Virus record (IMG/VR): IMGVR_UViG_3300045988_170321
Span: 1 to 38,205 of that record
Reading direction: 5' to 3' (one strand)
DNA from: a virus
Length of the DNA: 38,205 nt
Program-made: the position numbers and the translations under genes
Shown here: piece after piece, positions 97 to 37,797 of the stretch
Layout of the letters: each line of letters begins with the position of its first letter
Position numbering within the stretch: position 1 is the first letter of the stretch
Notes under the pieces: generated by a model
What the model was told of the DNA's origin: nothing
The model's input: only the letters and a program-made list of their open reading frames with translations
Database searches by the model: none

Positions 97-137
97 TGAC
101 ACATCAATTACACTTTTGACACCCATCTGACACCCAT
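97..137 (+). promoter_or_regulatory. Candidate integrase arm-type binding sites: TGACACCCAT twice (117-126, 128-137) plus a degenerate copy (97-105)
   Basis: The same 10-mer occurs twice more, in the same orientation, at 38021-38030 and 38033-38042 near the other att copy. Confidence 0.5.
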
Positions 138-1318
138 AGCCTATTATAATAATCATTCAGCTTGTCCATCTGCTCTTCTTTATGCTCGGCGTTCAAATGA
201 GTATATATTTCCATTGTTGTTGTAATATCTGCGTGTCCTGCCTGTTCCTTGGCAGTCATAACATCAACGCCTGCAAGGTACATATTTGTAATAAATGTAT
301 GTCTCAGCCAATGTGCTGTTATCTGCGGAATGACCATCGGAATTTTTTCAGGCGCATTCAGGCTTTGGGGTTTCTTAAATTCCTTAAGACTGCCCTTGCT
401 GTCAGTTATCAATATGCCGTCAAAGTCTCCAAATCTGAAATTCAATTCTTTAAGATAACTGTTCCACAGTTTACGCCAGGAGCTGCCAGACATAAGACTG
501 CCTTTTGTGTTCGGACAGACAAGCATTGTCTTTGCTTTGCTCCGCTGATCCCTAAGGTATTCTGCAAGTATAGGCGGAATATTCACAGTGCGCATACCTG
601 ACTTAGTTTTTGTGCACGGCTTTATTCTGGGAATATCCTTTTCCATTGCCACTGCTTTGTTTACGGTGATCGTGCGCTTGGGGATATTGATATCGGTCCA
701 GTTCAGAGCAAGAAGCTCACCACGTCGGAGACCTGCAAACAGCATTATCATTGCAGCCGTATGTGCCCGATGATTTGTCGGGGCAATTATCCACTTTTGT
801 TCTTCCTCAGTCAATGCTCTTCGTGGTTCCTTATCCTCATCGTGAATATATTCAGGGGGCAGTTCGATGCCCTGAACAGGGTTAAAGTCCATTACACGAT
901 TTACAATAGCATATTGGCAAATCTGAGACATTACCGACTTATATTCTTTTAATGTCTTATGCGCTGCTCCATCGGCGGTATATTTATCAATGATATCCTG
1001 ACAGTCAGATACAGACAGTTCCGAAATTGGAATATTGCTGATATCGTCCATCTTTTTTACCCTAATTGCATATGTCTGATATCTTCCCTCGGAAATCTTT
1101 CCTTTTTTCTTGCGTAACCAGCGTTCAGCCCATTCGCCAAAGGTGTCCCGTTCTGCCGAAACATCAATGCCCTTGCCGATTTTCAGCTTGACCTCCTGTA
1201 CCTTGCGGTCAAGCTCACGCTGTGTGTCAGCATATACGTATTTATATTTGCCGTCTCCGAGATAGACTTTTGACTGCAATCGTCCGTCGGAGCGCTTAGT
1301 GTTCTTGGCTCGTGCCAT
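104..1318 (-). CDS. int: Tyrosine recombinase / phage integrase
   Basis: The C-terminus carries AHWLRHTF...GHADITTTMEIYTH (R..H-x-x-R..H..Y catalytic pattern), with an N-terminal SAM-like/arm-binding region. The start is placed at MARAKN, behind AAAAGGAGGG. The gene is adjacent to att. Confidence 0.9.
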   Translation of the reverse strand: MARAKNTKRSDGRLQSKVYLGDGKYKYVYADTQRELDRKVQEVKLKIGKGIDVSAERDTFGEWAERWLRKKKGKISEGRYQTYAIRVKKMDDISNIPISELSVSDCQDIIDKYTADGAAHKTLKEYKSVMSQICQYAIVNRVMDFNPVQGIELPPEYIHDEDKEPRRALTEEEQKWIIAPTNHRAHTAAMIMLFAGLRRGELLALNWTDINIPKRTITVNKAVAMEKDIPRIKPCTKTKSGMRTVNIPPILAEYLRDQRSKAKTMLVCPNTKGSLMSGSSWRKLWNSYLKELNFRFGDFDGILITDSKGSLKEFKKPQSLNAPEKIPMVIPQITAHWLRHTFITNMYLAGVDVMTAKEQAGHADITTTMEIYTHLNAEHKEEQMDKLNDYYNRLWVSDGCQKCN

Positions 1319-1450
1319 TTTTAACCCTCCTTTTGCAGTTGACTGCAATGCCGTCACCCACCGAAAAATACAGAGGGAGCGGCTCGGTTTCTTATCGGGT
1401 GTTTTCCCGAAAAAAACTTTGATTTTTCAAAACTTTTTTCCGAAAAGCAC

Positions 1451-1503: not shown

Positions 1504-1680
1504 ATGAAAGATAAAGACCTTCTGAAACTGCTGATGCAGAACGGTTGGAAGCTTGACAGAGTAAAAGGAAGTCATCACGTTCTTAAAAAGGACGGCATGA
1601 CAGAGGTTATACCAATTCATGGTCAGGACGTTCCGACAGGACTGTTAAACGCAATACTAAAGAGGACGGGGCTGAAATAA
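1504..1680 (+). CDS. hicA: HicA-family mRNA interferase toxin (58 aa; too short for the ORF track)
   Basis: Translation is MKDKDLLKLLMQNGWKLDRVKGSHHVLKKDGMTEVIPIHGQDVPTGLLNAILKRTGLK. This is the typical HicA/YcfA motif (GW....GSHH...). An AAGGAGG RBS lies upstream. Confidence 0.85.
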   Translation: MKDKDLLKLLMQNGWKLDRVKGSHHVLKKDGMTEVIPIHGQDVPTGLLNAILKRTGLK

Positions 1681-1718
1681 GCCCCTCACTCCTCAAATAT
1701 ATACAAGGAGCTGTTTAT

Positions 1719-2102
1719 ATGAAAATGATTTATCCCGCAGTGTTCCATTTTGAAGATAACGCATACTGGGTTGAGTTTCCAGATCTTCCAGGTTGCCAGT
1801 CATTTGGTTCTTCTCTCACAGAAACACTTGACAACGCAAGGGAAGCATTGGAGGCATATGCAATATCCTTGATTGAAAACAAGGAAGAAATGCCAGCACC
1901 AAGCGAAATATCAAAGCTTTCTATCGAAAATGGTTGCTTTGCTTCGCTTGTTGATATTGACCTCTCAGCATATTTTAAGAGGGCAAAGGCTGTTAAAAAG
2001 ACCTTGACAATTCCTGAATGGCTAAACGATGCAGCCATTGAAAAAGGCATCAACTTCTCGCAGACCCTGCAGGATGCTCTTATGGTTAAAATCTCTCAGT
2101 AA
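1719..2102 (+). CDS. hicB: HicB-family antitoxin (N-terminal HicB fold plus C-terminal RHH-like DNA-binding tail)
   Basis: The N-terminus reads YPAVFHFEDNAYWVEFPDLPGCQSFG..., and the gene lies directly downstream of hicA. Confidence 0.85.
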   Translation: MKMIYPAVFHFEDNAYWVEFPDLPGCQSFGSSLTETLDNAREALEAYAISLIENKEEMPAPSEISKLSIENGCFASLVDIDLSAYFKRAKAVKKTLTIPEWLNDAAIEKGINFSQTLQDALMVKISQ

Positions 2103-2111
2103 ATATGATTT

Positions 2112-2144
2112 TCCCCCGTTCCGTATGGTTCGGGGGATTTTTTT
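2112..2144 (+). terminator. Rho-independent terminator after hicAB-1
   Basis: TCCCCCG (2112-2118) pairs with CGGGGGA (2131-2137), followed by a T7 run. Confidence 0.7.
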
Positions 2145-2844
2145 ATCCATTATTCTTGTTCTTCCCGTAAAAAATCCTGCCAGCCTCAAGGTTCTTGCGA
2201 TACTGGCAGCAGCGGGCGTAAAAGTTGTTTGAGTGCAGACATTTCAGCGCATCGGAGCAAGCAATATATTTGCTGCAGCAGCCGAATTTGTCGGAAGGTT
2301 GATAATTCTTTAATGTAAAGTCAATTAACTCTGTAAGATATGGAATAAGCGTAGTGCTGTTTATATCAAATTTATGGCATAAAAGCTTTCTGGTAAACTT
2401 TTCACCCGTTTTCTTATCTTTTGTTGATACATTGTATATTCTTTCAACTGCATCTTCAGGTTTTTTTATGCAGTCCTTGCGCTGATAAAGGTATTCAACT
2501 TCTATTCGGCTTGATTTAGAATTGTTTATGCGAGTAAGCTTGAAACATCTGTCGCTTTTAACTTCTTTGAATTCAGCTTCAAGCATCAAGGGCTCCAATA
2601 TCCAAACGCTGTAGCTTTTATTTTGCGAAGAGTCATTCTCTAATTCATTTTTTACAGTTTCATCACTGTTGTTATCTTGTACTTGCTTTTTTGACTTTTT
2701 ATGTTCGTTCAAGCCGTAAATTTTTATGTATTTTTTGTCGATATCTTGTTTTTTACACACTTCTTCAATAATATGGTCAAGTGTGTCAATTATATTTTCT
2801 GACAATGTTTCGCCGTCATTCATATCAAAAGTGAGCTGATCCAT
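2143..2844 (-). CDS. Hypothetical 233-aa protein with an acidic/Lys-rich N-terminal half and a Cys-rich C-terminal motif (CCSKYIACSDALKCLH...CCQYRKNLEAGRIFYG)
   Basis: The start is placed at MDQLTF, behind AAGGAG with a 7-nt spacer. It is translationally coupled to the upstream exonuclease gene (5-nt gap). The region is AT-rich. Confidence 0.6.
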   Translation of the reverse strand: MDQLTFDMNDGETLSENIIDTLDHIIEEVCKKQDIDKKYIKIYGLNEHKKSKKQVQDNNSDETVKNELENDSSQNKSYSVWILEPLMLEAEFKEVKSDRCFKLTRINNSKSSRIEVEYLYQRKDCIKKPEDAVERIYNVSTKDKKTGEKFTRKLLCHKFDINSTTLIPYLTELIDFTLKNYQPSDKFGCCSKYIACSDALKCLHSNNFYARCCQYRKNLEAGRIFYGKNKNNG

Positions 2845-2848
2845 GATA

Positions 2849-4060
2849 TTACTCCTTTTCAGTGATGAAGTTACTCTCTTCAATTATTGCTATTTTACCG
2901 CCGTTGTTATTGTATTCTTCTGCCTTTATTCGTTTAGCGCCTTTTTCATCTTTCCAGTCATCACTTCCATGCGCGCCGATTATAAGATAATCCAACTTTT
3001 TTATAACATTTGCCTTGATTATGGCACCATTTGCAATGAGGGTGTTTTCAAGAGCCGCACGCTCTCCGCATTTAAAATTTCCTGTAAGGCAAACGGTTTT
3101 ACCCGATACATCATACGAGAAAGACACATTTAAGCTGTTTGAATTCATTGAAATAAGTGCTTCGGAGTAAGTGATGAAATCACTTTCGGACAGAACACGC
3201 ACATTGGTTCGGATTGCAATGCTGTCTATCAAATCATCAGCTATGCGATTTGCATATTTTTTGTGCATATCTGTTCCAAGTATCAGATAGTCGGCAGAAT
3301 AGCAAAAATAGTCAATATACTCTGCGCCCAAAGCGTTAAGAAAGCTCTTGATTTTATCTGTATCTATTTTTTTGAAAGCTCCATACACTATACAGCTTTT
3401 CCCGTAAAACGGATTTTGCGCTAATGGGGTACTTTTTACTTCTGCATATTGGTTCTGAGATTTATCAGACTTTATTAAAACGGTACGTGAGCTATTCAGG
3501 TCAATCAATGGCTTCAAAGCCTGATATAAGCAGTTGGTAGTGTAGCAGTCATTTTCAGCTCTGTGAGCTTCAACAACGTTTATCCCCAAATAATCTGCCA
3601 TAGTTTCAAGACGATGGTTCTCCAGTTCAGGGAGACATCTTTTGGAAAGATGAAAAGTATCAATATATGTATTGGTAAAAGGAGTGCCTTTTAATTCCAT
3701 ATGAAGATCGTAGATGATATTATAATCGAATGAATCTATATTGTGTCCGATTAAAATATCGTTTCCGATAAAGTCGAGAAATTTATCAAACTCTTCTTTG
3801 ATGGTTGGTGCGTTTTTTACCATTTCATCTGTTATATGATTAGTCTTTGTAGCTTCACTCGGAATGTGCATTTCAGGATTTATCAAAGTTGAATACACAT
3901 CTGTTACAGTGTTGTTTCTTACTTTTAAAGCTGATATTTCAATGATTTTACAACGTGCAGGATTGAATCCTGTTGTTTCAAGGTCGAATACAGTATAATT
4001 GTCTTCGGCAGTAAATATTTTTGCGCCTTTGGAGCGATTTGAGTAGCTGTTTCTTGACAT
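2849..4060 (-). CDS. DEDDh 3'-5' exonuclease (DnaQ/PolIII-epsilon-like) fused to two C-terminal BRCT-like domains
   Basis: ExoI is FDLETTG, ExoII is GHNIDSFDYNII and ExoIII is HRAENDC. BRCT-like segments are GKSCIVYGAF... and GKTVCLTGNFKCGERAALENTLIANGAII...DYLIIG. The start is placed at MSRNS, behind GAGGTGA. Confidence 0.75.
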   Translation of the reverse strand: MSRNSYSNRSKGAKIFTAEDNYTVFDLETTGFNPARCKIIEISALKVRNNTVTDVYSTLINPEMHIPSEATKTNHITDEMVKNAPTIKEEFDKFLDFIGNDILIGHNIDSFDYNIIYDLHMELKGTPFTNTYIDTFHLSKRCLPELENHRLETMADYLGINVVEAHRAENDCYTTNCLYQALKPLIDLNSSRTVLIKSDKSQNQYAEVKSTPLAQNPFYGKSCIVYGAFKKIDTDKIKSFLNALGAEYIDYFCYSADYLILGTDMHKKYANRIADDLIDSIAIRTNVRVLSESDFITYSEALISMNSNSLNVSFSYDVSGKTVCLTGNFKCGERAALENTLIANGAIIKANVIKKLDYLIIGAHGSDDWKDEKGAKRIKAEEYNNNGGKIAIIEESNFITEKE

Positions 4061-4080
4061 CAGTATCACCTCATTGTTCA

Positions 4081-4491
4081 TTATATAATTTGTTTATCAA
4101 AATACACCCACATAGCAAACTTAACCATATCCTCGGTAATGCCGAAATACTCAGCAAGCTGCCATATCTCTGTATTTCCGTTTTTCATTGCTGTAACCAT
4201 CTCGTCCTTCGGGGCGAGTTTTTTTATTGCCCATTTATTGGCCCGATATTCCATACGTTCCCGAAGCTCAAGGCTGTGTTCGGTATAAAACGACATGGTC
4301 TCGCAGTGCCCCAGTTCGTGGGCAAGCACAGTCAGTAAATCTGCAACACCTGCAATCTGATCGTGATCTATTATTACTGTGCAGTCTCCGCAGTCATTGA
4401 TAGCCATTGAAGGGCATTTTTGAAGAGGAGCGTCGATCATAAGAATATCATCGGCTTCTGCAAGCTCACAGAGCTCAACATAACTTGTCAT
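4081..4491 (-). CDS. ImmA/IrrE-family zinc metallopeptidase (anti-repressor protease)
   Basis: It has an HELGH (HExxH) motif and lies immediately downstream of the XRE repressor, as in ImmR/ImmA pairs. Confidence 0.8.
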   Translation of the reverse strand: MTSYVELCELAEADDILMIDAPLQKCPSMAINDCGDCTVIIDHDQIAGVADLLTVLAHELGHCETMSFYTEHSLELRERMEYRANKWAIKKLAPKDEMVTAMKNGNTEIWQLAEYFGITEDMVKFAMWVYFDKQII

Positions 4492-4494
4492 TTA

Positions 4495-4839
4495 TCAATC
4501 TTCTTTCTTCTTGTCTTCTTCCCTCATTCTGCGGGCTATCTGGGCGTATTTGCGGACATCGTTCAGAACCTCTTCATCTACATCGGCGGTGCCAAACAGA
4601 GCAAAGGAAAGCTTCTCGTTGTCACTTTGCTCTTCTTTTTGGTTTTCATTTCCTACAAGATAATCAACAGATACGCCAAGGAAATCGGCTATCTTAGGAA
4701 GATGTTTCATATATGAATTGTTATTACCGTTTTTCCAGTTGGTAAACGCATTTTTGCTTAGCCCAAGAAAGTCAGTAAGGTCTTTTTGTTTTAGACCTTT
4801 ATTGTCCAATAATTCAATTATTTTGTGCAAAGTACACAT
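4495..4839 (-). CDS. XRE/CI-like HTH repressor
   Basis: The HTH segment reads LKQKDLTDFLGLSKNAFTNWKNG. The start is placed at MCTLHK, behind GGAGGT. It is divergent from the Cro-like gene. Confidence 0.8.
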   Translation of the reverse strand: MCTLHKIIELLDNKGLKQKDLTDFLGLSKNAFTNWKNGNNNSYMKHLPKIADFLGVSVDYLVGNENQKEEQSDNEKLSFALFGTADVDEEVLNDVRKYAQIARRMREEDKKKED

Positions 4840-4866
4840 TTTCGTTACCTCCAAATTGTACAGCAA

Positions 4867-5079
4867 TACAAAAGTGTATAAACTCGTGACTTTTGTATTG
4901 ACAGTAACGATTTTCTGTGCTATTATGTGTTTGTGAGGAAAACATAACACATAAGCAATAAGAAGTACAGGTAAATTTAATTGCAGTTAAGTTTACCAAG
5001 CACACACTATATTTGTTTCGCTAACAATATAGTAACGCTTTTATTTACTTTTGTCAAGCTTTCCGAACAAAAATAATTT
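4867..5079. promoter_or_regulatory. Lysis-lysogeny switch region with candidate promoters and a repeated operator half-site, ACTTTTGT/ACAAAAGT
   Basis: A plus-strand promoter reads TTGACA (4898-4903), 17-nt spacer, TATTAT (4921-4926). A minus-strand -35 TTGACA lies at 5057-5052 with -10 TACTAT at 5034-5029. A 9-bp inverted repeat spans 4867-4875 and 4889-4897, and a third half-site lies at 5047-5054. Confidence 0.5.
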
Positions 5080-5831: not shown

Positions 5832-6035
5832 CTATTTGTTGTAGAAATAGTTGTCAAGGGCAGTGCCTATATCAAGCAGAGCTAAGCTGATGCTGTGCAT
5901 AGCATTATACAGTTCGCCGTGAGTTACAGGGTCGTCTGAATCACGCCTTGCAATTTGATCAGTGCTTTCGGCAAATGTATTATGAATAGCTTCGAGTGCT
6001 TTGAGAAGCTCCTGTTCGTTGGTAGGCTTGGTCAT
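5832..6035 (-). CDS. Hypothetical 67-aa protein (unit 1 of the antisense small-gene array)
   Basis: The start is placed at MTKPTNEQ, behind AAAGGGGGTG with a 5-nt spacer. It has its own consensus promoter in repeat A and a GC hairpin downstream. Confidence 0.6.
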   Translation of the reverse strand: MTKPTNEQELLKALEAIHNTFAESTDQIARRDSDDPVTHGELYNAMHSISLALLDIGTALDNYFYNK

Positions 6036-6040
6036 GTTAT

Positions 6041-6184
6041 CACCCCCTTTCCATAAGAGGGTCTGAGCCTGCGGCAATGTGCCTTGAACGCAAGCTCATT
6101 GAAAACATCATACCGCAGTAAGCGGCAGATGTCAAGGCAAAAGCAAAGCCCCCGCAGGGCACACCACGGGAGCGGATAACCGTT
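6041..6184 (-). repeat. Repeat A of a 144-bp cassette: GC hairpin with T-tract, then a TTGACA/17-nt/TATGAT promoter (6135-6107), then a ~65-nt leader with SD AAAGGGGGTG
   Basis: It differs from 6391-6534 at only 3 positions (6053, 6143, 6180). A partial copy of the hairpin part lies at 5787-5820. Confidence 0.85.
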
Positions 6185-6393
6185 TAATCGGCAAAGCCAT
6201 AAGCAGTGTTTTTAGAGGGGACACTGCCACAGGCAGCAGAGCGGTAAATATCTTTTCTTATAGCATCGTTAGTTGGCATTCGGAAGCGTGATAGGTCCTC
6301 GTGCATATTCTCGATGCGTTCAGAGATACGCCAATCAGATTCACAGCGATCAACGGTATCAAAGTCAAAAAAGAAAAAGAAGAAAGCAAACAC
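6184..6393 (-). CDS. Possible small protein (69 aa, unit 2) with a poly-Phe N-terminus (FAFFFFFFDFD). The start is uncertain; the GTG lies inside the SD.
   Basis: The frame shows protein-level similarity to unit 3 (RIENMHED versus RIETLHEE) outside the repeated DNA. Confidence 0.35.
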   Translation of the reverse strand: MFAFFFFFFDFDTVDRCESDWRISERIENMHEDLSRFRMPTNDAIRKDIYRSAACGSVPSKNTAYGFAD

Positions 6394-6534
6394 CCCCTTT
6401 CCGTAAGAGGGTCTGAGCCTGCGGCAATGTGCCTTGAACGCAAGCTCATTGAAAACATCATACCGCAGTAAGCGGCAGATGTCAAGGCAAAAACAAAGCC
6501 CCCGCAGGGCACACCACGGGAGCGGATAAGCGTT
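6391..6534 (-). repeat. Repeat B of the 144-bp terminator/promoter/leader cassette (promoter -35 at 6485-6480, -10 at 6462-6457)
   Basis: Direct repeat of 6041-6184 at an offset of 350 bp. Confidence 0.85.
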
Positions 6535-6670
6535 AAATGTCCGGTGTTGCCGCATTCAGCACAGCTTTTTGGATTTGTAGATGTGTTGAACGAGGAATAG
6601 ACATTCTTTCTTCATGCAGGGTTTCAATTCGCATGAGAATATCGCTATCAAAAAAGAAGAAAGCAAACAC
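6533..6670 (-). CDS. Possible small protein (45 aa, unit 3), a paralogue of unit 2 with N-terminus FAFFFFDSD
   Basis: It has the same leader/SD (6648-6693 matches 6365-6416) and a conserved RIE-x-(M/L)-HE-(D/E) segment. The start is uncertain. Confidence 0.3.
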   Translation of the reverse strand: MFAFFFFDSDILMRIETLHEERMSIPRSTHLQIQKAVLNAATPDI

Positions 6671-6732
6671 CCCCTTTCCGTAAGAGGGTCTGAACTACAG
6701 AAAATGTGCCTTTTCGGTAATTCATTAGTCAA

Positions 6733-10119: not shown

Positions 10120-11802
10120 ATGAAAAAGGATAATGCCAAATTGGCGGAGCTCTGGCGGCAATTTCCCTGTCTGCTAAGCAGGGAAGCCGAGGACCAGATC
10201 GTATATGATGCGCTGCCGCAATTCCTGTTCTACCAAAAGAAGCGTGGCAAAGCATGGTGCTATTGCACTGCCTGCCGCCGCAGCGATGTGTTCCAAAAAG
10301 ATGTGTATGCTGACGGAATACGGATAGGCGGCAGTGATGTTCCGGAACGCCTTAAACACAATGATGTCGGCACCTGCCCGATGTGCGGTCATAAAGTTAC
10401 ATACAAATGCGAGGGCAGAGGACATAAGTGCCTTAGGGCGTGGGGAAATTATGCTGTATTCACTGCAAAAGACAATGTACTGTATATAAATGCCGTAAAA
10501 GTCATAGTATCATGGTCGCACATTGAAGAACCGTATATCGACTATGAGTACCACAGGCGATATATATTTTCCGAATACGGTTCGGAGGAAATGCGCTGGA
10601 CATGGCAGAGTGGGGGCTTCACGGCGATGAAAGCAATAAACGAGCCTGTATTCGGAATGTACAATATGGGCATAGACAGCATGGAATATACCCATTCATA
10701 CACCTGCATCAACGATGATGCAATAGGTGACACATTCCTCAGATACGTGCCATATTACGATTATTGTCAATCGGCGGACGATATTCACCCGGTAAAATTT
10801 ATTGAACTATGTGCGAAAAATCCCGCACTATGCGAGCAGCTGTGGAAATGTGGATTTTCAAAGGTAGTAACAGATATGGCAGTCGGTAAATCCGTCTTTT
10901 CCAAAATGATAAATTGGAAATGCACAGAGATAAAAAAGGCGCTGGGCTTTGATGCCAAGGAAATGAAAGAATTTCATGACAATGGCTGTTACTATTCCCT
11001 TCGGCAGATATACGGATATATGCTGCTGAAAAAAATAAAAGGCATAAACAGCTTCGATGAGTGCATGAACATTCTCAAAGCCGACGGAATAAGTCTTATT
11101 GAAGAAGAGATCAAGCTTTCCCGTCAAATGAGGGCGTCGTTTGTAAAGGTCAGAAACTATATCTATAAGCACTGTAAATCTGACAGATACGGAGGGGCGC
11201 TGGAATGGAGCGACTGCAACAGAATGATGGATACGCTCGGATATCCCAAGGAAAGCGTTCTGAGATTTCCCAAAAGTCTTAGAAAGCTGCATGACCGTCT
11301 CGTAAACGAGACCAATGCGGCGGAAGAACGTATAAGAAAGGCTCAGGACGTCCCCAATGACCTTAAAATCAAGGCACAGGAGGAAGAGCTGTCAAAGCTC
11401 ATCTACAGCAATCTGCTGTATGAAATAGTATTGCCTAAGGATATGCAGGATATCAGAGATGAGGGCAAAGTCCTTGACCATTGTGTGGCATCATACGCCG
11501 AGCGCCATGCCAGAGGTGCTACACACATATTTTTTATTCGTAAGCGCTGGAACCCTGAGGAACGGTGGTACACCATCGAGGTATCGGCGGAAGGATATAT
11601 ACGGCAGTGTTACGGATACAAGGATAACAGAACGGTCAAGAAGCCAGACAGCATCAAGCAGTTTGAAAAAGAGTATCGGCTGTTCCTGGATCATGTATTC
11701 AATAGGCTGAGCGACAAGGAATATGAAAAAGAGGCAATGAAGCTTGCCGATAACGGAGGTAACGAAAATGGAAGAAACAACAATAATCAGCTCACAGCAT
11801 AA
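10120..11802 (+). CDS. PcfJ-like protein
   Basis: The C-terminus carries EGKVLDHCVASYAERHARGATHIFFIRK. An N-terminal Cys cluster reads CYCTAC...CPMCGH. Confidence 0.6.
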   Translation: MKKDNAKLAELWRQFPCLLSREAEDQIVYDALPQFLFYQKKRGKAWCYCTACRRSDVFQKDVYADGIRIGGSDVPERLKHNDVGTCPMCGHKVTYKCEGRGHKCLRAWGNYAVFTAKDNVLYINAVKVIVSWSHIEEPYIDYEYHRRYIFSEYGSEEMRWTWQSGGFTAMKAINEPVFGMYNMGIDSMEYTHSYTCINDDAIGDTFLRYVPYYDYCQSADDIHPVKFIELCAKNPALCEQLWKCGFSKVVTDMAVGKSVFSKMINWKCTEIKKALGFDAKEMKEFHDNGCYYSLRQIYGYMLLKKIKGINSFDECMNILKADGISLIEEEIKLSRQMRASFVKVRNYIYKHCKSDRYGGALEWSDCNRMMDTLGYPKESVLRFPKSLRKLHDRLVNETNAAEERIRKAQDVPNDLKIKAQEEELSKLIYSNLLYEIVLPKDMQDIRDEGKVLDHCVASYAERHARGATHIFFIRKRWNPEERWYTIEVSAEGYIRQCYGYKDNRTVKKPDSIKQFEKEYRLFLDHVFNRLSDKEYEKEAMKLADNGGNENGRNNNNQLTA

Positions 11803-19097: not shown

Positions 19098-20786
19098 ATG
19101 AAATACGTAAAACGGTACTGTGACAAGATACTTGGCGAGGAGATACGCAGCTGCGAGGAGCAGAAGCAGCTATGCAGGCTGGTTCTGCGTGCCTTTGAAG
19201 AAGAGGACATACACATTGACGAGCTGAGTGTTGATAAATATTTTGGCTTGCAGAAATATTTCAGATATGAGCTTTTTGACTGGGAGAAATTCTGCTTTGT
19301 GCTCCATTGCTGCACGTACCGTGCGGACGGAATGCCGAGGTGGCCCGATATGCTGGGATACATGGGGCGTGGGTCGGGAAAGAACGGATATGTGAGCTTT
19401 GAGGATTTTGCGCTTCTTTCCCCCGCAAACGGCATAAGGAATTACAACATACAGTCCTTTGCGGCGGCTGAGGACAACGCCAAGACCAGTTTTGAGGAGG
19501 TACGCAATGATGTTCTGGAAGAGCACAAGCCCAAGCTTTCCCGCTTTTATTCCTGGAACATGGAGAAGATAACCTGCACAAAGACAAAGAGCGTATGGAC
19601 ATACCACACGTCCGCCCCAAAGACCAAGGACGGCGGACGGCCGGGAAAGGTGAATTTTGACGAGATACACGTTTTTGAAAATTCCGACCTGATAGACGTT
19701 GCGGAGGGCGGCCTCGGCAAGGTGCGTGACCCCCGAAAGCTGTACACAAGCACAGACGGAGAGGTGAGGGACGGTGTACTTGACGCAAAAAAGGAAGTGG
19801 CGAGGGCTATACTCAGAGGAGACCGCCCCGACAACGGATTTTTGCCCTTTATGTGCCACATGGAGCTTTCGGAGATAGATGACCCCGACAACTGGATAAT
19901 GGCGGTGCCCAGCCTTGACGAGTTTCCTGTGCTGAGGGAGCAGATGATGCGTGACTACATAGAGTACAAGGAAGACCCTATACGCAAGAGGGCATTTGCG
20001 GTAAAGCGCTGCAACTGCCCTGACGGTGTACGTGAGGGAGCGGTGACGGGCTGGGAGAACATACAAGCCTGCTGCCGTGGGGCTATGCCCTCGGAGATAC
20101 CTGAGGTATTGAAGCGCCCATGTATCATTGCGGTGGACTACAGCCTTGTAGATGACTTTATGTCGGCGGTGATCGTAAATCTTATTGACGGGATATATTA
20201 CGTAAGGCAGAAAACATGGATATGCGAGCAGAGCCGTGACCTGCCCAGGATAAACTTTCCGTACATGGAGGCTGTTGCCCGTGGGGAAGCTGAGATGGTC
20301 AAGGGTTCGGAGATAGGCTCGGAGCTTCCGTTTCTGTGGATAAAGGAAGAGACAAAAAATCAGAGAGTGCTTGCGGGAGCGGCGGACAGCTACAGATTTC
20401 CCCACATGAAGAGGAACGCTGAACAGATACTGGGCATAACGGGAGAGGCGAGAAAGGCGGCAAACCATTACGGAGAAGACACGGGGCATATATATTTTAC
20501 CCGTCCCTCTGACCTTGCAAAGGCTGCACCCGACATCACCCTCGACCTCAACAGGCGTATGTTTTACTGCGGTGACAGCATGATAATGCGCTGGTACCTA
20601 AACAACGTAAAGCGTGTGGTGGATAGCAAGGGCAACACGACCTTTGAGAAGATAGAGGGCAAGAGCCGAAAGACTGATGGTGCTATGGCACTGTTTGCGG
20701 CTATGACCGTTGCGCCCATGCTTGAAAAATACGATAAGAAAAAAAGTTCGGGCATAGTACTCCCGAAACTGAAAATATACAGATAG
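19098..20786 (+). CDS. Terminase large subunit
   Basis: 562 aa with a Walker-A-like GRGSGKNG and a Terminase_1-like layout. Confidence 0.85.
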   Translation: MKYVKRYCDKILGEEIRSCEEQKQLCRLVLRAFEEEDIHIDELSVDKYFGLQKYFRYELFDWEKFCFVLHCCTYRADGMPRWPDMLGYMGRGSGKNGYVSFEDFALLSPANGIRNYNIQSFAAAEDNAKTSFEEVRNDVLEEHKPKLSRFYSWNMEKITCTKTKSVWTYHTSAPKTKDGGRPGKVNFDEIHVFENSDLIDVAEGGLGKVRDPRKLYTSTDGEVRDGVLDAKKEVARAILRGDRPDNGFLPFMCHMELSEIDDPDNWIMAVPSLDEFPVLREQMMRDYIEYKEDPIRKRAFAVKRCNCPDGVREGAVTGWENIQACCRGAMPSEIPEVLKRPCIIAVDYSLVDDFMSAVIVNLIDGIYYVRQKTWICEQSRDLPRINFPYMEAVARGEAEMVKGSEIGSELPFLWIKEETKNQRVLAGAADSYRFPHMKRNAEQILGITGEARKAANHYGEDTGHIYFTRPSDLAKAAPDITLDLNRRMFYCGDSMIMRWYLNNVKRVVDSKGNTTFEKIEGKSRKTDGAMALFAAMTVAPMLEKYDKKKSSGIVLPKLKIYR

Positions 20787-35665: not shown

Positions 35666-36364
35666 TTATTCAAATTCTTCTTTTAAAATGCCATCATTAA
35701 AATACATATCATGTTTCTTATCAACAAATTTACGTATATCATATTTATAAGTATGACCATTTATAGTAATTTTTCCTTCGAGAAATCCAGATAATTTTTT
35801 TGCAAGTATAGCATTGGTTGTATTATCCGCTAAATGCTTACTCTTCATAAATGTTGGAAGTTTAGCGGGTATATCATCAATCTTTAGAATAGGTTCTAAA
35901 TCAAGTTTACGCTGATCTTTGTCATCTTTTTCGGTAATTACGCCGATTTTTATACATGTTAATTCATATTCGTCTAATTTACCTACACAATATACTACAT
36001 CTTCTATACTACTTTTCCATTGCCCTACTAGTTTAAGTATTACATCTATTCCAGAAAATGTTTTTTTCATATCATATAAGTAGGCATGGGCTTTTTTATC
36101 TTTGGAGAAAAATATATACATAAAGTCAACTTTTTTTGCATTCTCCAAAAAGTTTAATTGAAATTCATTTCCGATAAACGCATATTCATCGCCAGAAAAA
36201 GCAGAATGAATGTATAATGATTCGTTTTCTTCTTCTTCTTTTAATAAAATAACATGACTATTGCATGATTTGTCGATAAGCTTTGGTGTGTTTTTCTTAA
36301 GGGTTAAACAGCTTGTTTGTAATAGTTCGGCTTTTTTAAATAATTTTGCACGTAAATGATTCAT
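35666..36364 (-). CDS. Hypothetical 232-aa protein with a possible PD-(D/E)xK nuclease motif (VDFMYIFF...AYLYDMKK)
   Basis: It starts 5 nt downstream of the ATPase stop. It is very AT-rich. The motif was read by eye only. Confidence 0.6.
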   Translation of the reverse strand: MNHLRAKLFKKAELLQTSCLTLKKNTPKLIDKSCNSHVILLKEEEENESLYIHSAFSGDEYAFIGNEFQLNFLENAKKVDFMYIFFSKDKKAHAYLYDMKKTFSGIDVILKLVGQWKSSIEDVVYCVGKLDEYELTCIKIGVITEKDDKDQRKLDLEPILKIDDIPAKLPTFMKSKHLADNTTNAILAKKLSGFLEGKITINGHTYKYDIRKFVDKKHDMYFNDGILKEEFE

Positions 36365-36369
36365 AATTG

Positions 36370-37749
36370 TTAATCTTCCTCAGCTAATTTTATAGCGTCC
36401 TGATATATTTTGTCATTAGTACTGTTAAACAAAGAAAAATCAAAGCCGATTCCAAGTAAAATATTGTTTGGTATTTCTTCTACTATGGTTTTGCCTTGTT
36501 TTATGATAAATTGATAAGCGTGAACATTTGTATTATTAAGAATGTCATCATTGTCATATCCTAATTTTAATGCTAAGTCGTATTTGTTATTTTTGGCAGA
36601 CATTGTGATAAGATTATTGATTGCTGCAACCATGGTATCGCTATGGGTACTTACGATCATTTTATAACCAGCATTTACCATTCTTATTAAAAGACGCGCT
36701 AACTGTAATTGCTTTGTTGGATGTTGACAAGTGTCAATTTCATCATATAATATCATATTTGGACGTATACTACTGGTTAGAACTTGACATATTGGGGCTA
36801 GTTCTGATACTAGTGATGAGGATAGATAAATAGGAAGGGTATCCTCAGAACCATTAGGTGTATATACCATAGAATTACCGACTTTGGTGAGATTTCCGTT
36901 AATTATGTTATTAGTGATAAAAGATAATATTTTTTTATTTCCTTTTGAAGCCAATTCACTAGCTTTATGCTTTAATAAAAACATAAGAAAATTATATACG
37001 GGTTCAGTAAGCCCATATTCGTTTTCTACTTCATCCTTTTCATCTTCTGCAAATACTACGTCGCTGGTAGTTTCATTATTTCTTAAATCATTTGCTAAAT
37101 AATTAGCATATAACAACATAATACCTGATCTGGATGCTGGCAAATAAATAATTGAATTATTTTCGGCTTTTCGATTGCTATTTATCTGTACTCCAATATT
37201 ATCTGATAAAATAAAAGATAAAAGTTCTTGCTTGATAGTTCCCTCAATGAGTGACTTGGGATAACTTTCAAAAAATCTTATTGTCAGTGTTTTGCTATCA
37301 CTTCTTGTGATTTTGTACGTTTCAAAATGTTGACTGTTATCTTTTTCAACTACTGGAGATAAGCCTTCATAGCTTAATGTATAATTAAATATTAAATCAT
37401 TTAATTCTATACTCAATTCTTCAATCTTCAATTTTTTGGTATGGAATATCTCTTTAATAATTCTATCCTTATTGTTGTAAAGAAACATATTGATACAATC
37501 TTGCAGGCTGAGCAGAAATCCTTTATCAGAGGAATCTATACTTATAGGATTTTCTGAAATATTAATTTCTTCAAAATCTTGTAATGCTTCAGTAAATTTC
37601 TTGTCATTTGAAAATGAAAAAATCACGCCATAAATTAGTTGCATTAAATAAGATTTACCAGAATTATTTTCTCCTACAAATATCGAAAAGTTACTCACAT
37701 CTATATTAGCAGATGAGATTTTTCCAAAATTGCGTACTTTAATATTCAT
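36370..37749 (-). CDS. ABC/AAA_15-AAA_21-like ATPase (459 aa from MNIKVRNFG)
   Basis: Walker A is GENNSGKS and Walker B is MILYDEID. It also has an STHS H-loop-like motif and a YLPASRSG Q-loop-like motif. Confidence 0.75.
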   Translation of the reverse strand: MNIKVRNFGKISSANIDVSNFSIFVGENNSGKSYLMQLIYGVIFSFSNDKKFTEALQDFEEINISENPISIDSSDKGFLLSLQDCINMFLYNNKDRIIKEIFHTKKLKIEELSIELNDLIFNYTLSYEGLSPVVEKDNSQHFETYKITRSDSKTLTIRFFESYPKSLIEGTIKQELLSFILSDNIGVQINSNRKAENNSIIYLPASRSGIMLLYANYLANDLRNNETTSDVVFAEDEKDEVENEYGLTEPVYNFLMFLLKHKASELASKGNKKILSFITNNIINGNLTKVGNSMVYTPNGSEDTLPIYLSSSLVSELAPICQVLTSSIRPNMILYDEIDTCQHPTKQLQLARLLIRMVNAGYKMIVSTHSDTMVAAINNLITMSAKNNKYDLALKLGYDNDDILNNTNVHAYQFIIKQGKTIVEEIPNNILLGIGFDFSLFNSTNDKIYQDAIKLAEED

Positions 37750-37797
37750 ATTTTTCACCACATAAAAAAATATTGCCATAAATCAATCATTTTTTTT

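Follow-up and report, generated by a model that had tools for sequence, protein, structure and literature searches.

Why should the lysogeny operon of a prophage encode an exonuclease and a cysteine-rich protein behind its repressor? The question is raised by the IMG/VR virus record IMGVR_UViG_3300045988_170321, of which positions 1 to 38,205 were analyzed as one strand of 38,205 nucleotides (nt), referred to below as the window. The window is a prophage, and at 2143-4839 it has four open reading frames (ORFs) on the minus strand, coding in order of transcription for an XRE repressor, an ImmA protease, a DEDDh exonuclease with two BRCT domains, and a cysteine-rich protein referred to below as the partner. 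A first-pass annotation made from the letters alone had described this block at the same coordinates and had read its last two genes as a nuclease module expressed by the prophage; the observation is confirmed with the small corrections given below, and the interpretation is supported in part.

The two genes belong together. Genome comparisons firmly support the reading that 2849-4060 and 2143-2844 encode two halves of one enzyme, which is a single chain in many other genomes; this reading follows from natural fusions and near-obligate adjacency, and the same findings bear out the functional link and the co-occurrence that the first-pass annotation had marked for checking. Searches with the partner return close full-length relatives, proteins of 140-200 amino acids (aa) sharing its last ~50 residues, and DEDDh exonucleases of 355-396 aa ending in those residues; searches with the exonuclease return many proteins of ~580-630 aa with the Cys domain at the end. 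Among the Cys-domain proteins of more than 300 aa, 18 were scanned and 17 of these contain RNase_T, usually with BRCT, and the Cys domain lies either before or after the exonuclease. The exception among the 18, P0292, has Nlig-Ia in place of Exo-BRCT, and its gene lies directly after a gene for a 388-aa exonuclease. In P0144 and P0016, relatives of the two window genes are fused; the partner half of P0144 is ~52% identical to the window partner (it matches P0006) and the exonuclease half is 42% identical. A scan of 185,579 species genomes (one per species) with a single strict peptide pattern gives 83 confirmed Cys-domain loci, a lower bound, and 78 ORFs were scored: 21 are fused to the exonuclease, 31 follow an exonuclease gene directly and 18 immediately precede one (70/78), and eight have no exonuclease nearby, several of these being at contig ends. 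Among IMG/VR viral contigs the Cys domain is fused or adjacent to the exonuclease in 62 of 74. The two products would be expected to form a physical complex. Their near-obligate coupling makes the pair a well-defined two-component nuclease with a probable metal cofactor and a clean biochemical target.

The catalytic subunit (2849..4060, minus strand; 403 aa) consists of a DEDDh 3'-5' exonuclease domain and two BRCT domains (RNase_T 1.9e-34, BRCT 1.7e-10). The exonuclease domain spans residues 24-175 (3536..3991), and the full DEDDh set that had been read from the translation is there (FDLETTG, HNIDSFD and HRAENDC); with 120 bits against an RNase_T cut-off of 24, plus motifs Exo I-III, the protein belongs to the DEDDh/DnaQ-like superfamily. 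A strict regular expression for these motifs matched 71 of 144 exonuclease ORFs, and since the pattern is too strict no conservation claim is made from it. The two BRCT-like modules are likewise real, with BRCT at 41.4 bits against 21.3 in two stretches and PTCB-BRCT at 25 against 22. BRCT 1 (best Pfam stretch, residues 215-291; 3188..3418) is degenerate, with YG replacing the usual TG motif. BRCT 2 (residues ~319-399; 2864..3106) is LigA-like, with CLTGNF...KKLDYLIIG, a PTCB-BRCT match at residues 323-370, and matches over residues 319-399 to phrog_2561 (DNA ligase, 1.6e-12), as well as to phrog_3869 (NAD-dependent ligase, 4.1e-06). If translation began instead at 4081, at a start that overlaps the stop codon of ImmA, the product would have 410 aa.

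By sequence the closest solved structure is the PolC exonuclease 2p1j (5e-24), followed by DinG, DnaQ and Cas2-DEDDh, all of which act on DNA; the best Protein Data Bank (PDB) matches are 2p1j, 8zef, 8h18 and 8fy9. Sequence similarity thus firmly supports the assignment of 2849-4060 as a DnaQ/PolC-type DNA exonuclease with BRCT domains. It falls below the NCBIfam cut-offs for epsilon equivalogs (PRK06195 74.9 vs 373, PRK06309 102.8 vs 245, dnaQ_proteo 72.2 vs 222.7) and passes only the generic dnaq subfamily domain (104.7 vs 71.5), and 83 loci in mixed contexts among the species genomes are far from the near-universal presence at a conserved position that marks a housekeeping proofreader. Related proteins of ~225 aa (P0206-P0240) have the same exonuclease domain joined to a topoisomerase-type C4 zinc finger (PF01396), so that different Cys/Zn DNA-binding modules have been joined repeatedly to this exonuclease clade.

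These relationships bear on one proposed role, in which the pair is an anti-defence or signal-degrading nuclease acting on cyclic oligonucleotides, retron msDNA or other immune signals. DEDDh enzymes do include oligoribonucleases, and a DRT-associated PADLOC model is weakly similar (4.2e-05); however, the best structural and sequence relatives are all DNA exonucleases of the PolC/DnaQ/DinG clade, which argues against degradation of cyclic oligonucleotides, the BRCT domains and the basic Cys domain indicate DNA, and no immune-signalling genes are linked to the module. We therefore consider such a role, one of those offered by the first-pass annotation, to be very improbable.

The accessory subunit, the partner (2143..2844, minus strand; 233 aa), begins with a flexible tail and continues with a variable alpha/beta domain and a conserved Cys domain. 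It starts 4 nt past the exonuclease stop codon, with AAGGAG ahead of its ATG. Its N-terminal half, noted before as acidic, has an isoelectric point (pI) of about 4.6-5.0; for the basic C-terminal half the value is 9.2. The Cys domain (residues ~186-230; 2155..2289) has the form FGCC-x5-CSD-x3-C-x10-C-x-YRKNLEAGRIFYGKN and is itself basic (pI 9.2). The cluster had been described as CC-x5-C-x6-C-x-H; the spacing is actually CC-x5-C-x5-C, and the His after the third Cys is not conserved across the family. The family consensus is FGCCxxYxxCSDAxKCLHxxxxYxxGCxYRKNLEAGRIFYGKNKNI, in which C9, C10, C16, S17, C22, C33, Y35, N38, L39, G42, F45, Y46, G47 and N49 are invariant among 38 diverse sequences. 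An exhaustive profile search with a local 52-position profile finds 1,327 representative clusters (at 50% identity) at E ≤ 1e-3 and 1,037 at E ≤ 1e-10. The window partner matches this profile at 1.7e-28, and its profile match together with its adjacency to the exonuclease places it in the Cys5-YRKNLEAGRIFYGKN domain family defined here. Mean column identity is 17% over the whole partner alignment vs 66% in the Cys domain, and the N-terminal domain is hypervariable.

No family match to the whole partner is found in Pfam, NCBIfam, PHROG or PADLOC, none to the 38 isolated Cys domains in Pfam, and none to the Cys-domain profile among PDB sequences at E ≤ 10. An AlphaFold2 (AF2) model of the partner (pLDDT 85.6, pTM 0.80) shows an alpha/beta domain preceded by a floppy tail at the N-terminus and, as a small unit of three short helices (pLDDT 83-89), the Cys domain; with this full-length model Foldseek returns nothing significant from PDB (best E 0.055, TM 0.15) or from BFVD (best E 0.038). 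The isolated 53-aa Cys domain is modelled poorly (pLDDT 55.7) and was not used for fold searching, a result that hints weakly that the domain depends on metal or on the rest of the protein. From its conserved residues the five-Cys domain probably binds Zn or an Fe-S cluster, and the C-x5-C-x5-C spacing is reminiscent of the cluster ligands of Rrf2 regulators. In P0292 (L167 968-3101) a LigA-type NAD-binding Ia domain stands ahead of the alpha/beta and Cys domains; by analogy, this hints that the variable part of the partner may be a sensor. A role as phage NAD+ sensors has been suggested for solo Nlig-Ia domains (PMC9503650).

The extreme N-terminus of the partner is the third element of interest. 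The window protein begins MDQLTFDM, and residues 3-8 (QLTFDM; 2821..2838, minus strand) form a short linear motif resembling those that bind the beta sliding clamp, located in a low-confidence tail (pLDDT 54 for residues 1-10). The clamp-binding consensus is QL[SD]LF or QLxLxL, to which the window peptide is only a partial match. In 38 of 195 stand-alone partners the strict motif Q[LIVMT][STDANC][LFMI][FL] is present within the 16 N-terminal residues, vs 2 of 1,270 control N-termini, an enrichment of ~120-fold, and partner N-termini are enriched for M[ED]Q[LIM][ST][LFM][FD]; no clamp-binding motif is present on the exonuclease chain. A QLxF motif is kept at the junction of the window-type fusions P0144 and P0016 and is absent from P0155-type and other fusions. 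Docking of the peptide on the BRCT domains of the exonuclease, with loss in the fusions, was considered and did not hold up, as P0144 and P0016 keep the motif and, at L015 and L054, the exonuclease next to a motif-bearing partner has no BRCT that could be detected. Because of these last two loci, the BRCT domains appear the less likely receptor and the clamp the more likely one.

Where else is the pair found? Its distribution is patchy, covering far less than 1% of the species genomes, and the hosts are almost all Clostridia (Oscillospiraceae, Lachnospiraceae, Ruminococcus and Christensenellales), with a few isolates among them. Proteins with an XRE helix-turn-helix (HTH) are the most frequent among the two genes upstream (26 of 134 neighbours), and the two genes downstream include five serine and five tyrosine recombinases. 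The same-strand order of XRE, sometimes ImmA, the module and a recombinase, behind a divergent cro-like gene, is seen in 51 of 74 viral contigs and in ~17 of 78 genomes. The first-pass annotation had called the two genes unusual cargo for an immunity operon; this does not hold, as the arrangement is stereotyped in Clostridia phages and repressor-linked Exo-BRCT genes are also present in streptococcal prophages. Streptococcus pneumoniae IPP44 (L165 1335-3032) has an XRE protein of 121 aa, an M78 ImmA of 127 aa, an Exo+BRCT protein of 307 aa and an integrase, and S. suis Javan549 (L166 1346-3699) has CI, Exo+BRCT, a PemK/MazF-like protein and an integrase. IPP44 and its relatives thus share with the window an XRE gene, an M78 ImmA gene, a DEDDh+BRCT exonuclease and an integrase on one strand. 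In all these streptococcal prophages, Javan549 among them, the exonuclease has a single BRCT domain, is 268-307 aa long and 26-28% identical to that of the window, and has no Cys-domain partner. Full-text literature searching found no functional study of these streptococcal genes. Repressor-linked Exo-BRCT is recurrent in Firmicutes prophages, and the Cys-domain subunit is a Clostridia-specific addition; a tblastn search of 50,697 phage records found no partner in cultured phages. One series of copies is in conjugative elements with TrbL, TraG, TraC and RadC.

The pair is a mobile cassette that is independent of the genetic switch. At locus L093 the partner is 99% and the exonuclease 97% identical to those of the window, and the repressor is unrelated, ImmA is absent and the integrase is 61% identical. 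At L094-L098 the partner is 87% identical, and the exonuclease is 30% identical with another architecture (Exo, a helical insert and one BRCT). Phages with an ImmA at least 93% identical or an integrase 99% identical to that of the window hold other cargo at the same spot: a 524-aa exonuclease with a 317-aa protein of unknown function, an exonuclease alone, nothing at all, a 473-aa FRG-domain protein, or a 505-aa DUF4041/GIY-YIG protein (the last two named from plasmid annotations). Loci with other or no cargo are L171-L177, L180, L182, L184, L187-L189 and L192-L200. PDB annotation of the 317-aa and 505-aa proteins yielded nothing useful. Further cargo includes what we take, from motifs, to be a 364-aa HsdR-N-like protein, a DUF4236-like membrane protein and a putative lipoprotein. 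It is this mosaicism, together with the swapping of cargo behind near-identical ImmA or integrase genes, that separates the cassette from the switch. As to the partner being a repressor-specific anti-repressor or damage sensor, this idea was rejected on the L093 cassette, 97-99% identical behind an unrelated repressor without ImmA.

The spot itself is a hotspot for cargo, where toxin-antitoxin, Abi-like and nuclease genes are also found. In the window a HicA/HicB toxin-antitoxin pair (1504..2102, plus strand, convergent with the operon; HicA_toxin 3.4e-17, HicB_lk_antitox 4.2e-17) is placed between the exonuclease cassette and the tyrosine integrase as a cargo neighbour in the same hotspot, and near-identical relatives (L212 8395-9177; L168 and L169) have between the partner and hicB an extra gene for a 260-aa Abi_alpha protein (PF14337), which the window lacks. 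The integrase gene (104..1357, on the minus strand like the operon; Phage_integrase 5.4e-21, with Phage_int_M and Phage_int_SAM_3) forms the end of the lysogeny module.

The swapping of cargo also bears on the suggestion that, while lysogeny is being established, the nuclease serves to process integration intermediates or the ends of the phage's own genome. The presence of repressor, module and integrase on one strand in most of the viral contigs would suit this, as would the LigA-like BRCT domain, which suggests that nicks or ends are the site of action. Nevertheless, in close relatives that share the ImmA or the integrase the module is missing or replaced by unrelated cargo, and it is also present in non-phage contexts, so that such a role is quite improbable.

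At the head of the operon, the XRE/CI-type repressor (4495..4839, minus strand; 114 aa) matches HTH_26 (1.8e-06), HTH_3 (1.3e-05), Phage_CI_repr (6.5e-05) and phrog_8 (transcriptional regulator, 2.3e-19), and GGAGG is located 8 nt ahead of its ATG. The ImmA/IrrE-type M78 metalloprotease (4081..4491, minus strand; 136 aa) starts 3 nt past the XRE stop codon, has an HELGH motif, and matches Peptidase_M78 (25.9 bits, cut-off 22) and phrog_87 (metallo-protease, 4.7e-21). With an XRE HTH protein, an M78 protease with HExxH and a divergent early promoter region, the window contains an ImmR/ImmA-type immunity module. The region upstream of XRE has the look of a genetic switch. A consensus scan places a promoter-like site, TTGACA-17-TACTAT, upstream of XRE at 5029..5057 on the minus strand (10/12 matches, a consensus match only) and a second, TTGACA-17-TATTAT with extended TG, facing it at 4898..4926 on the plus strand (11/12). 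Candidate operators found by repeat search are an element of ~18-22 nt whose core is GTAACG-N-TTTT, in three copies (4831-4848, inverted, 4903-4924 and 5031-5052) that overlap the face-to-face promoter-like sites (switch region 4831-5057), and a perfect 12-nt inverted repeat, CAATACAAAAGT / ACTTTTGTATTG (4864-4875/4889-4900). The repeats at 4831-5052 are thus candidates for an operator role.

The packing of the four genes is as close as first described, with measured gaps of 3, 20 and 4 nt, Shine-Dalgarno-like sequences (GGAGG, GAGGTG and AAGGAG) ahead of three starts, and the sigma-70-like promoter (5057-5029) upstream of the co-oriented block. No convincing minus-strand terminator is seen 3' of the partner; the T-run of a hairpin at 2119-2135 lies on the plus strand, and the hairpin looks like the hicB terminator, not one for the exonuclease operon. 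Because the cassette sits between the repressor/ImmA genes and the integrase, the exonuclease and partner are probably made together with the repressor in the lysogen.

Such coupling could have a regulatory purpose, in which the pair makes or destroys single-stranded DNA and 3' ends and so sets the DNA-damage threshold for ImmA activation and prophage induction. The tight coupling to XRE, and to ImmA in the window, in L001, L082, L085 and L086 and in pneumococcal IPP44, is consistent with this, as are the resemblance of XRE and ImmA to the PADLOC capH and capP models (8e-08 and 0.0054) and the precedent of mobile elements that modulate the host DNA-damage response, of which ICEBs1 is an example (PMC11841131). 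The cassette at L093 nonetheless stands behind an unrelated repressor without ImmA, most viral loci lack ImmA (an ImmA profile finds 11 ImmA ORFs in 75 viral contigs), and many copies have no XRE or recombinase gene nearby. We regard a part in tuning induction as unlikely.

What, then, does the enzyme do in the lysogen? Our preferred explanation, which we hold tentatively, is that a nuclease expressed by the lysogen trims the ends or nicks of incoming DNA before it is ligated, thereby acting in exclusion or defence. The catalytic half would be a DnaQ/PolC-type DNA 3'-5' exonuclease with LigA-like BRCT domains; the BRCT and Cys domains would place it on DNA 3' ends beside a 5'-phosphate, at nicks or at recessed or cohesive ends; and the accessory half may be tethered to the sliding clamp by its QLxF-type peptide at the N-terminus. 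In a lysogen the enzyme would trim ends and nicks of incoming linear or freshly annealed foreign DNA ahead of sealing by the host ligase, a kind of superinfection exclusion from which the integrated prophage, having no free ends, would be exempt. The substrate, the binding of metal, expression in the lysogen and the biological payoff are all predictions of this proposal. The main argument for it is the position of the module, its hotspot company (Abi_alpha, HicAB, FRG and GIY-YIG), its AT-richness, its patchy distribution and the hypervariable domain of the partner. The AT-richness reported earlier is clear, GC being 37.4% at 2143-4839 vs 48.4% in the phage core, where the lowest value for any window of equal size is 43.8%.

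Superinfection exclusion or defence had been put forward by the first-pass annotation, and the lysogeny position and the shared hotspot speak for it, but the case is one of position alone and 29 of 78 genome loci have no defence-island signal. These 29 have no XRE or recombinase gene within five genes and lie amid mixed ordinary chromosomal genes, two of them adjoining ligA; defence islands were considered as the setting of the chromosomal copies and were not seen among these neighbours. Several further points weigh against exclusion. The promoter-like matches are not above those in shuffled sequence (14 vs 10.9 ± 3.6), co-transcription with the repressor is read from the 3-20 nt gaps only, and at L094-L098 repressor and module stand ~390 nt apart, with an ORF on the opposite strand between them. 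In PADLOC the partner has no match, and the exonuclease aligns with PDC-S48 and Cas-associated DEDDh in their DEDDh portion only. Finally, the combination of Exo-BRCT with a clamp-like motif is that of mycobacterial DnaQ, a demonstrated trans-acting proofreader with an Exo-BRCT-clamp motif order in which BRCT is essential (PMC11348249).

This last resemblance leads to a different account, in which the pair is a DNA repair or fidelity factor, a clamp-associated exonuclease that proofreads in trans or cleans 3' ends and is carried as a host-fitness gene, in parallel with the Y-family polymerase genes of other mobile elements. We consider this possible, and nearly as likely as exclusion. It would accommodate the closeness of the exonuclease to PolC, DnaQ and DinG and the generic dnaq score above its cut-off, the QL[SD]LF-like motif enriched on a partner of an Exo+BRCT protein, the chromosomal copies amid housekeeping genes and twice by ligA, the LigA Ia domain on one partner, and the copies near RadC in conjugative elements. 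It fits less well with a distribution unlike that of a core proofreader, with phage copies that are in the lysogeny operon and hotspot and are interchangeable with Abi_alpha, FRG and GIY-YIG genes, with the failure to reach any epsilon equivalog cut-off, and with a motif that in the window (QLTFDM) matches the clamp consensus in part and in P0155-type fusions is missing. Proofreading for the phage's own replication is a separate matter, and the first-pass annotation was right to set it aside: the module belongs to the lysogeny operon and lies outside the replication module, which makes such a role unlikely.

Mycobacterial DnaQ is among the closest known comparisons. Both systems have an N-terminal DEDDh exonuclease followed by BRCT and include a short motif of clamp-binding type, a putative one in the window; the catalytic chain of the window, however, contains two BRCT domains and lacks such a motif, and the motif-like peptide stands instead at the N-terminus of a separate subunit with unmatched alpha/beta and five-Cys domains. 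Mycobacterial DnaQ is moreover a conserved chromosomal gene, whereas the window pair is in a prophage lysogeny operon and patchily distributed. PolC-type exonucleases, DnaQ (epsilon), DinG and Cas2-DEDDh share the catalytic fold and the DEDDh motifs but have no tandem BRCT domains and no Cys subunit, and their contexts are replication, helicase fusion and CRISPR adaptation. The ImmR/ImmA modules of Firmicutes phages and integrative and conjugative elements (ICEs), and CapH/CapP, share the XRE and M78 genes, the divergent promoter region and operator-like repeats; the nuclease cassette of the window differs in not being tied to the regulator pair, and no known effector controlled by CapH/CapP is present. 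Searches of PADLOC-DB v2 do not place the pair among known defence systems, with no match to the partner; the single-gene defence candidate PDC-S48 shares a DEDDh match (7.7e-29), but only model positions 4-166 of 411 align and the BRCT region and partner have no counterpart, so that the window protein is not a member. Literature searching found no paper joining DEDDh, BRCT and prophage, and found DEDDh or DnaQ combined with BRCT only in papers on mycobacterial DnaQ. DEDDh-BRCT exonucleases, one of them characterized in mycobacteria, are thus already known; the obligate Cys5-domain subunit, the size of its family and its stereotyped placement in lysogeny operons appear in no library or paper searched.

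We also consider, as a rather doubtful extension of exclusion, that the pair could represent a widespread and unrecognized anti-phage or anti-plasmid system of gut Clostridia, carried by prophages and ICEs, in which a metal-cluster (possibly Fe-S) subunit, a hypervariable sensor domain and a clamp peptide would direct the exonuclease to 3' ends and unsealed nicks, destroying cohesive ends and blocking ligation while sparing the prophage. If the pair does exclude foreign DNA, it would be a new mechanism of prophage-encoded immunity in the human gut and would also explain the 'exonuclease' genes in streptococcal prophage lysogeny modules; if it acts in fidelity or repair, temperate phages would be able to change the mutation rates of their hosts. 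Either way, the case shows how function in uncultured phages can be sought through a gene pair that is split or fused and through a cargo hotspot.

The prophage is very common in the gut. Its exact ImmA protein is indexed in 1,325 blocks of a public assembly collection, including contigs of 1.8-2.9 Mb. Its lysogeny operon nonetheless encodes an enzyme subunit from a family of at least 1,327 clusters unmatched in the libraries, PDB and predicted viral structures searched. Nine of the ten places displayed with the exact ImmA (L204-L213) have an identical gene order followed by the same chromosomal GGDEF flank, and the integration site adjoins a GGDEF/periplasmic-binding-protein gene. The variant L207, also with the exact ImmA, has another integrase followed by an AAA_21 + RloB pair.

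Elsewhere in the window, a TerL gene is located at 19098-20786 and a PcfJ-like gene at 10120-11802. A direct repeat of 148 nt, 97% identical between its copies at 6041-6188 and 6391-6538 and with a third, partial copy at 6651-6712, sits in the early region (6024-6712) amid short overlapping ORFs, and could be a regulatory RNA, an origin or a set of repeated terminators. At the right end, a minus-strand segment of 30% GC (35666-37779) encodes a 469-aa AAA_15 ATPase with a full-length match to the PADLOC model PD-T4-4_A (4.8e-39), followed by a 232-aa protein with no family match; together they probably make up a defence pair of two genes, positioned at the prophage end or just beyond it.

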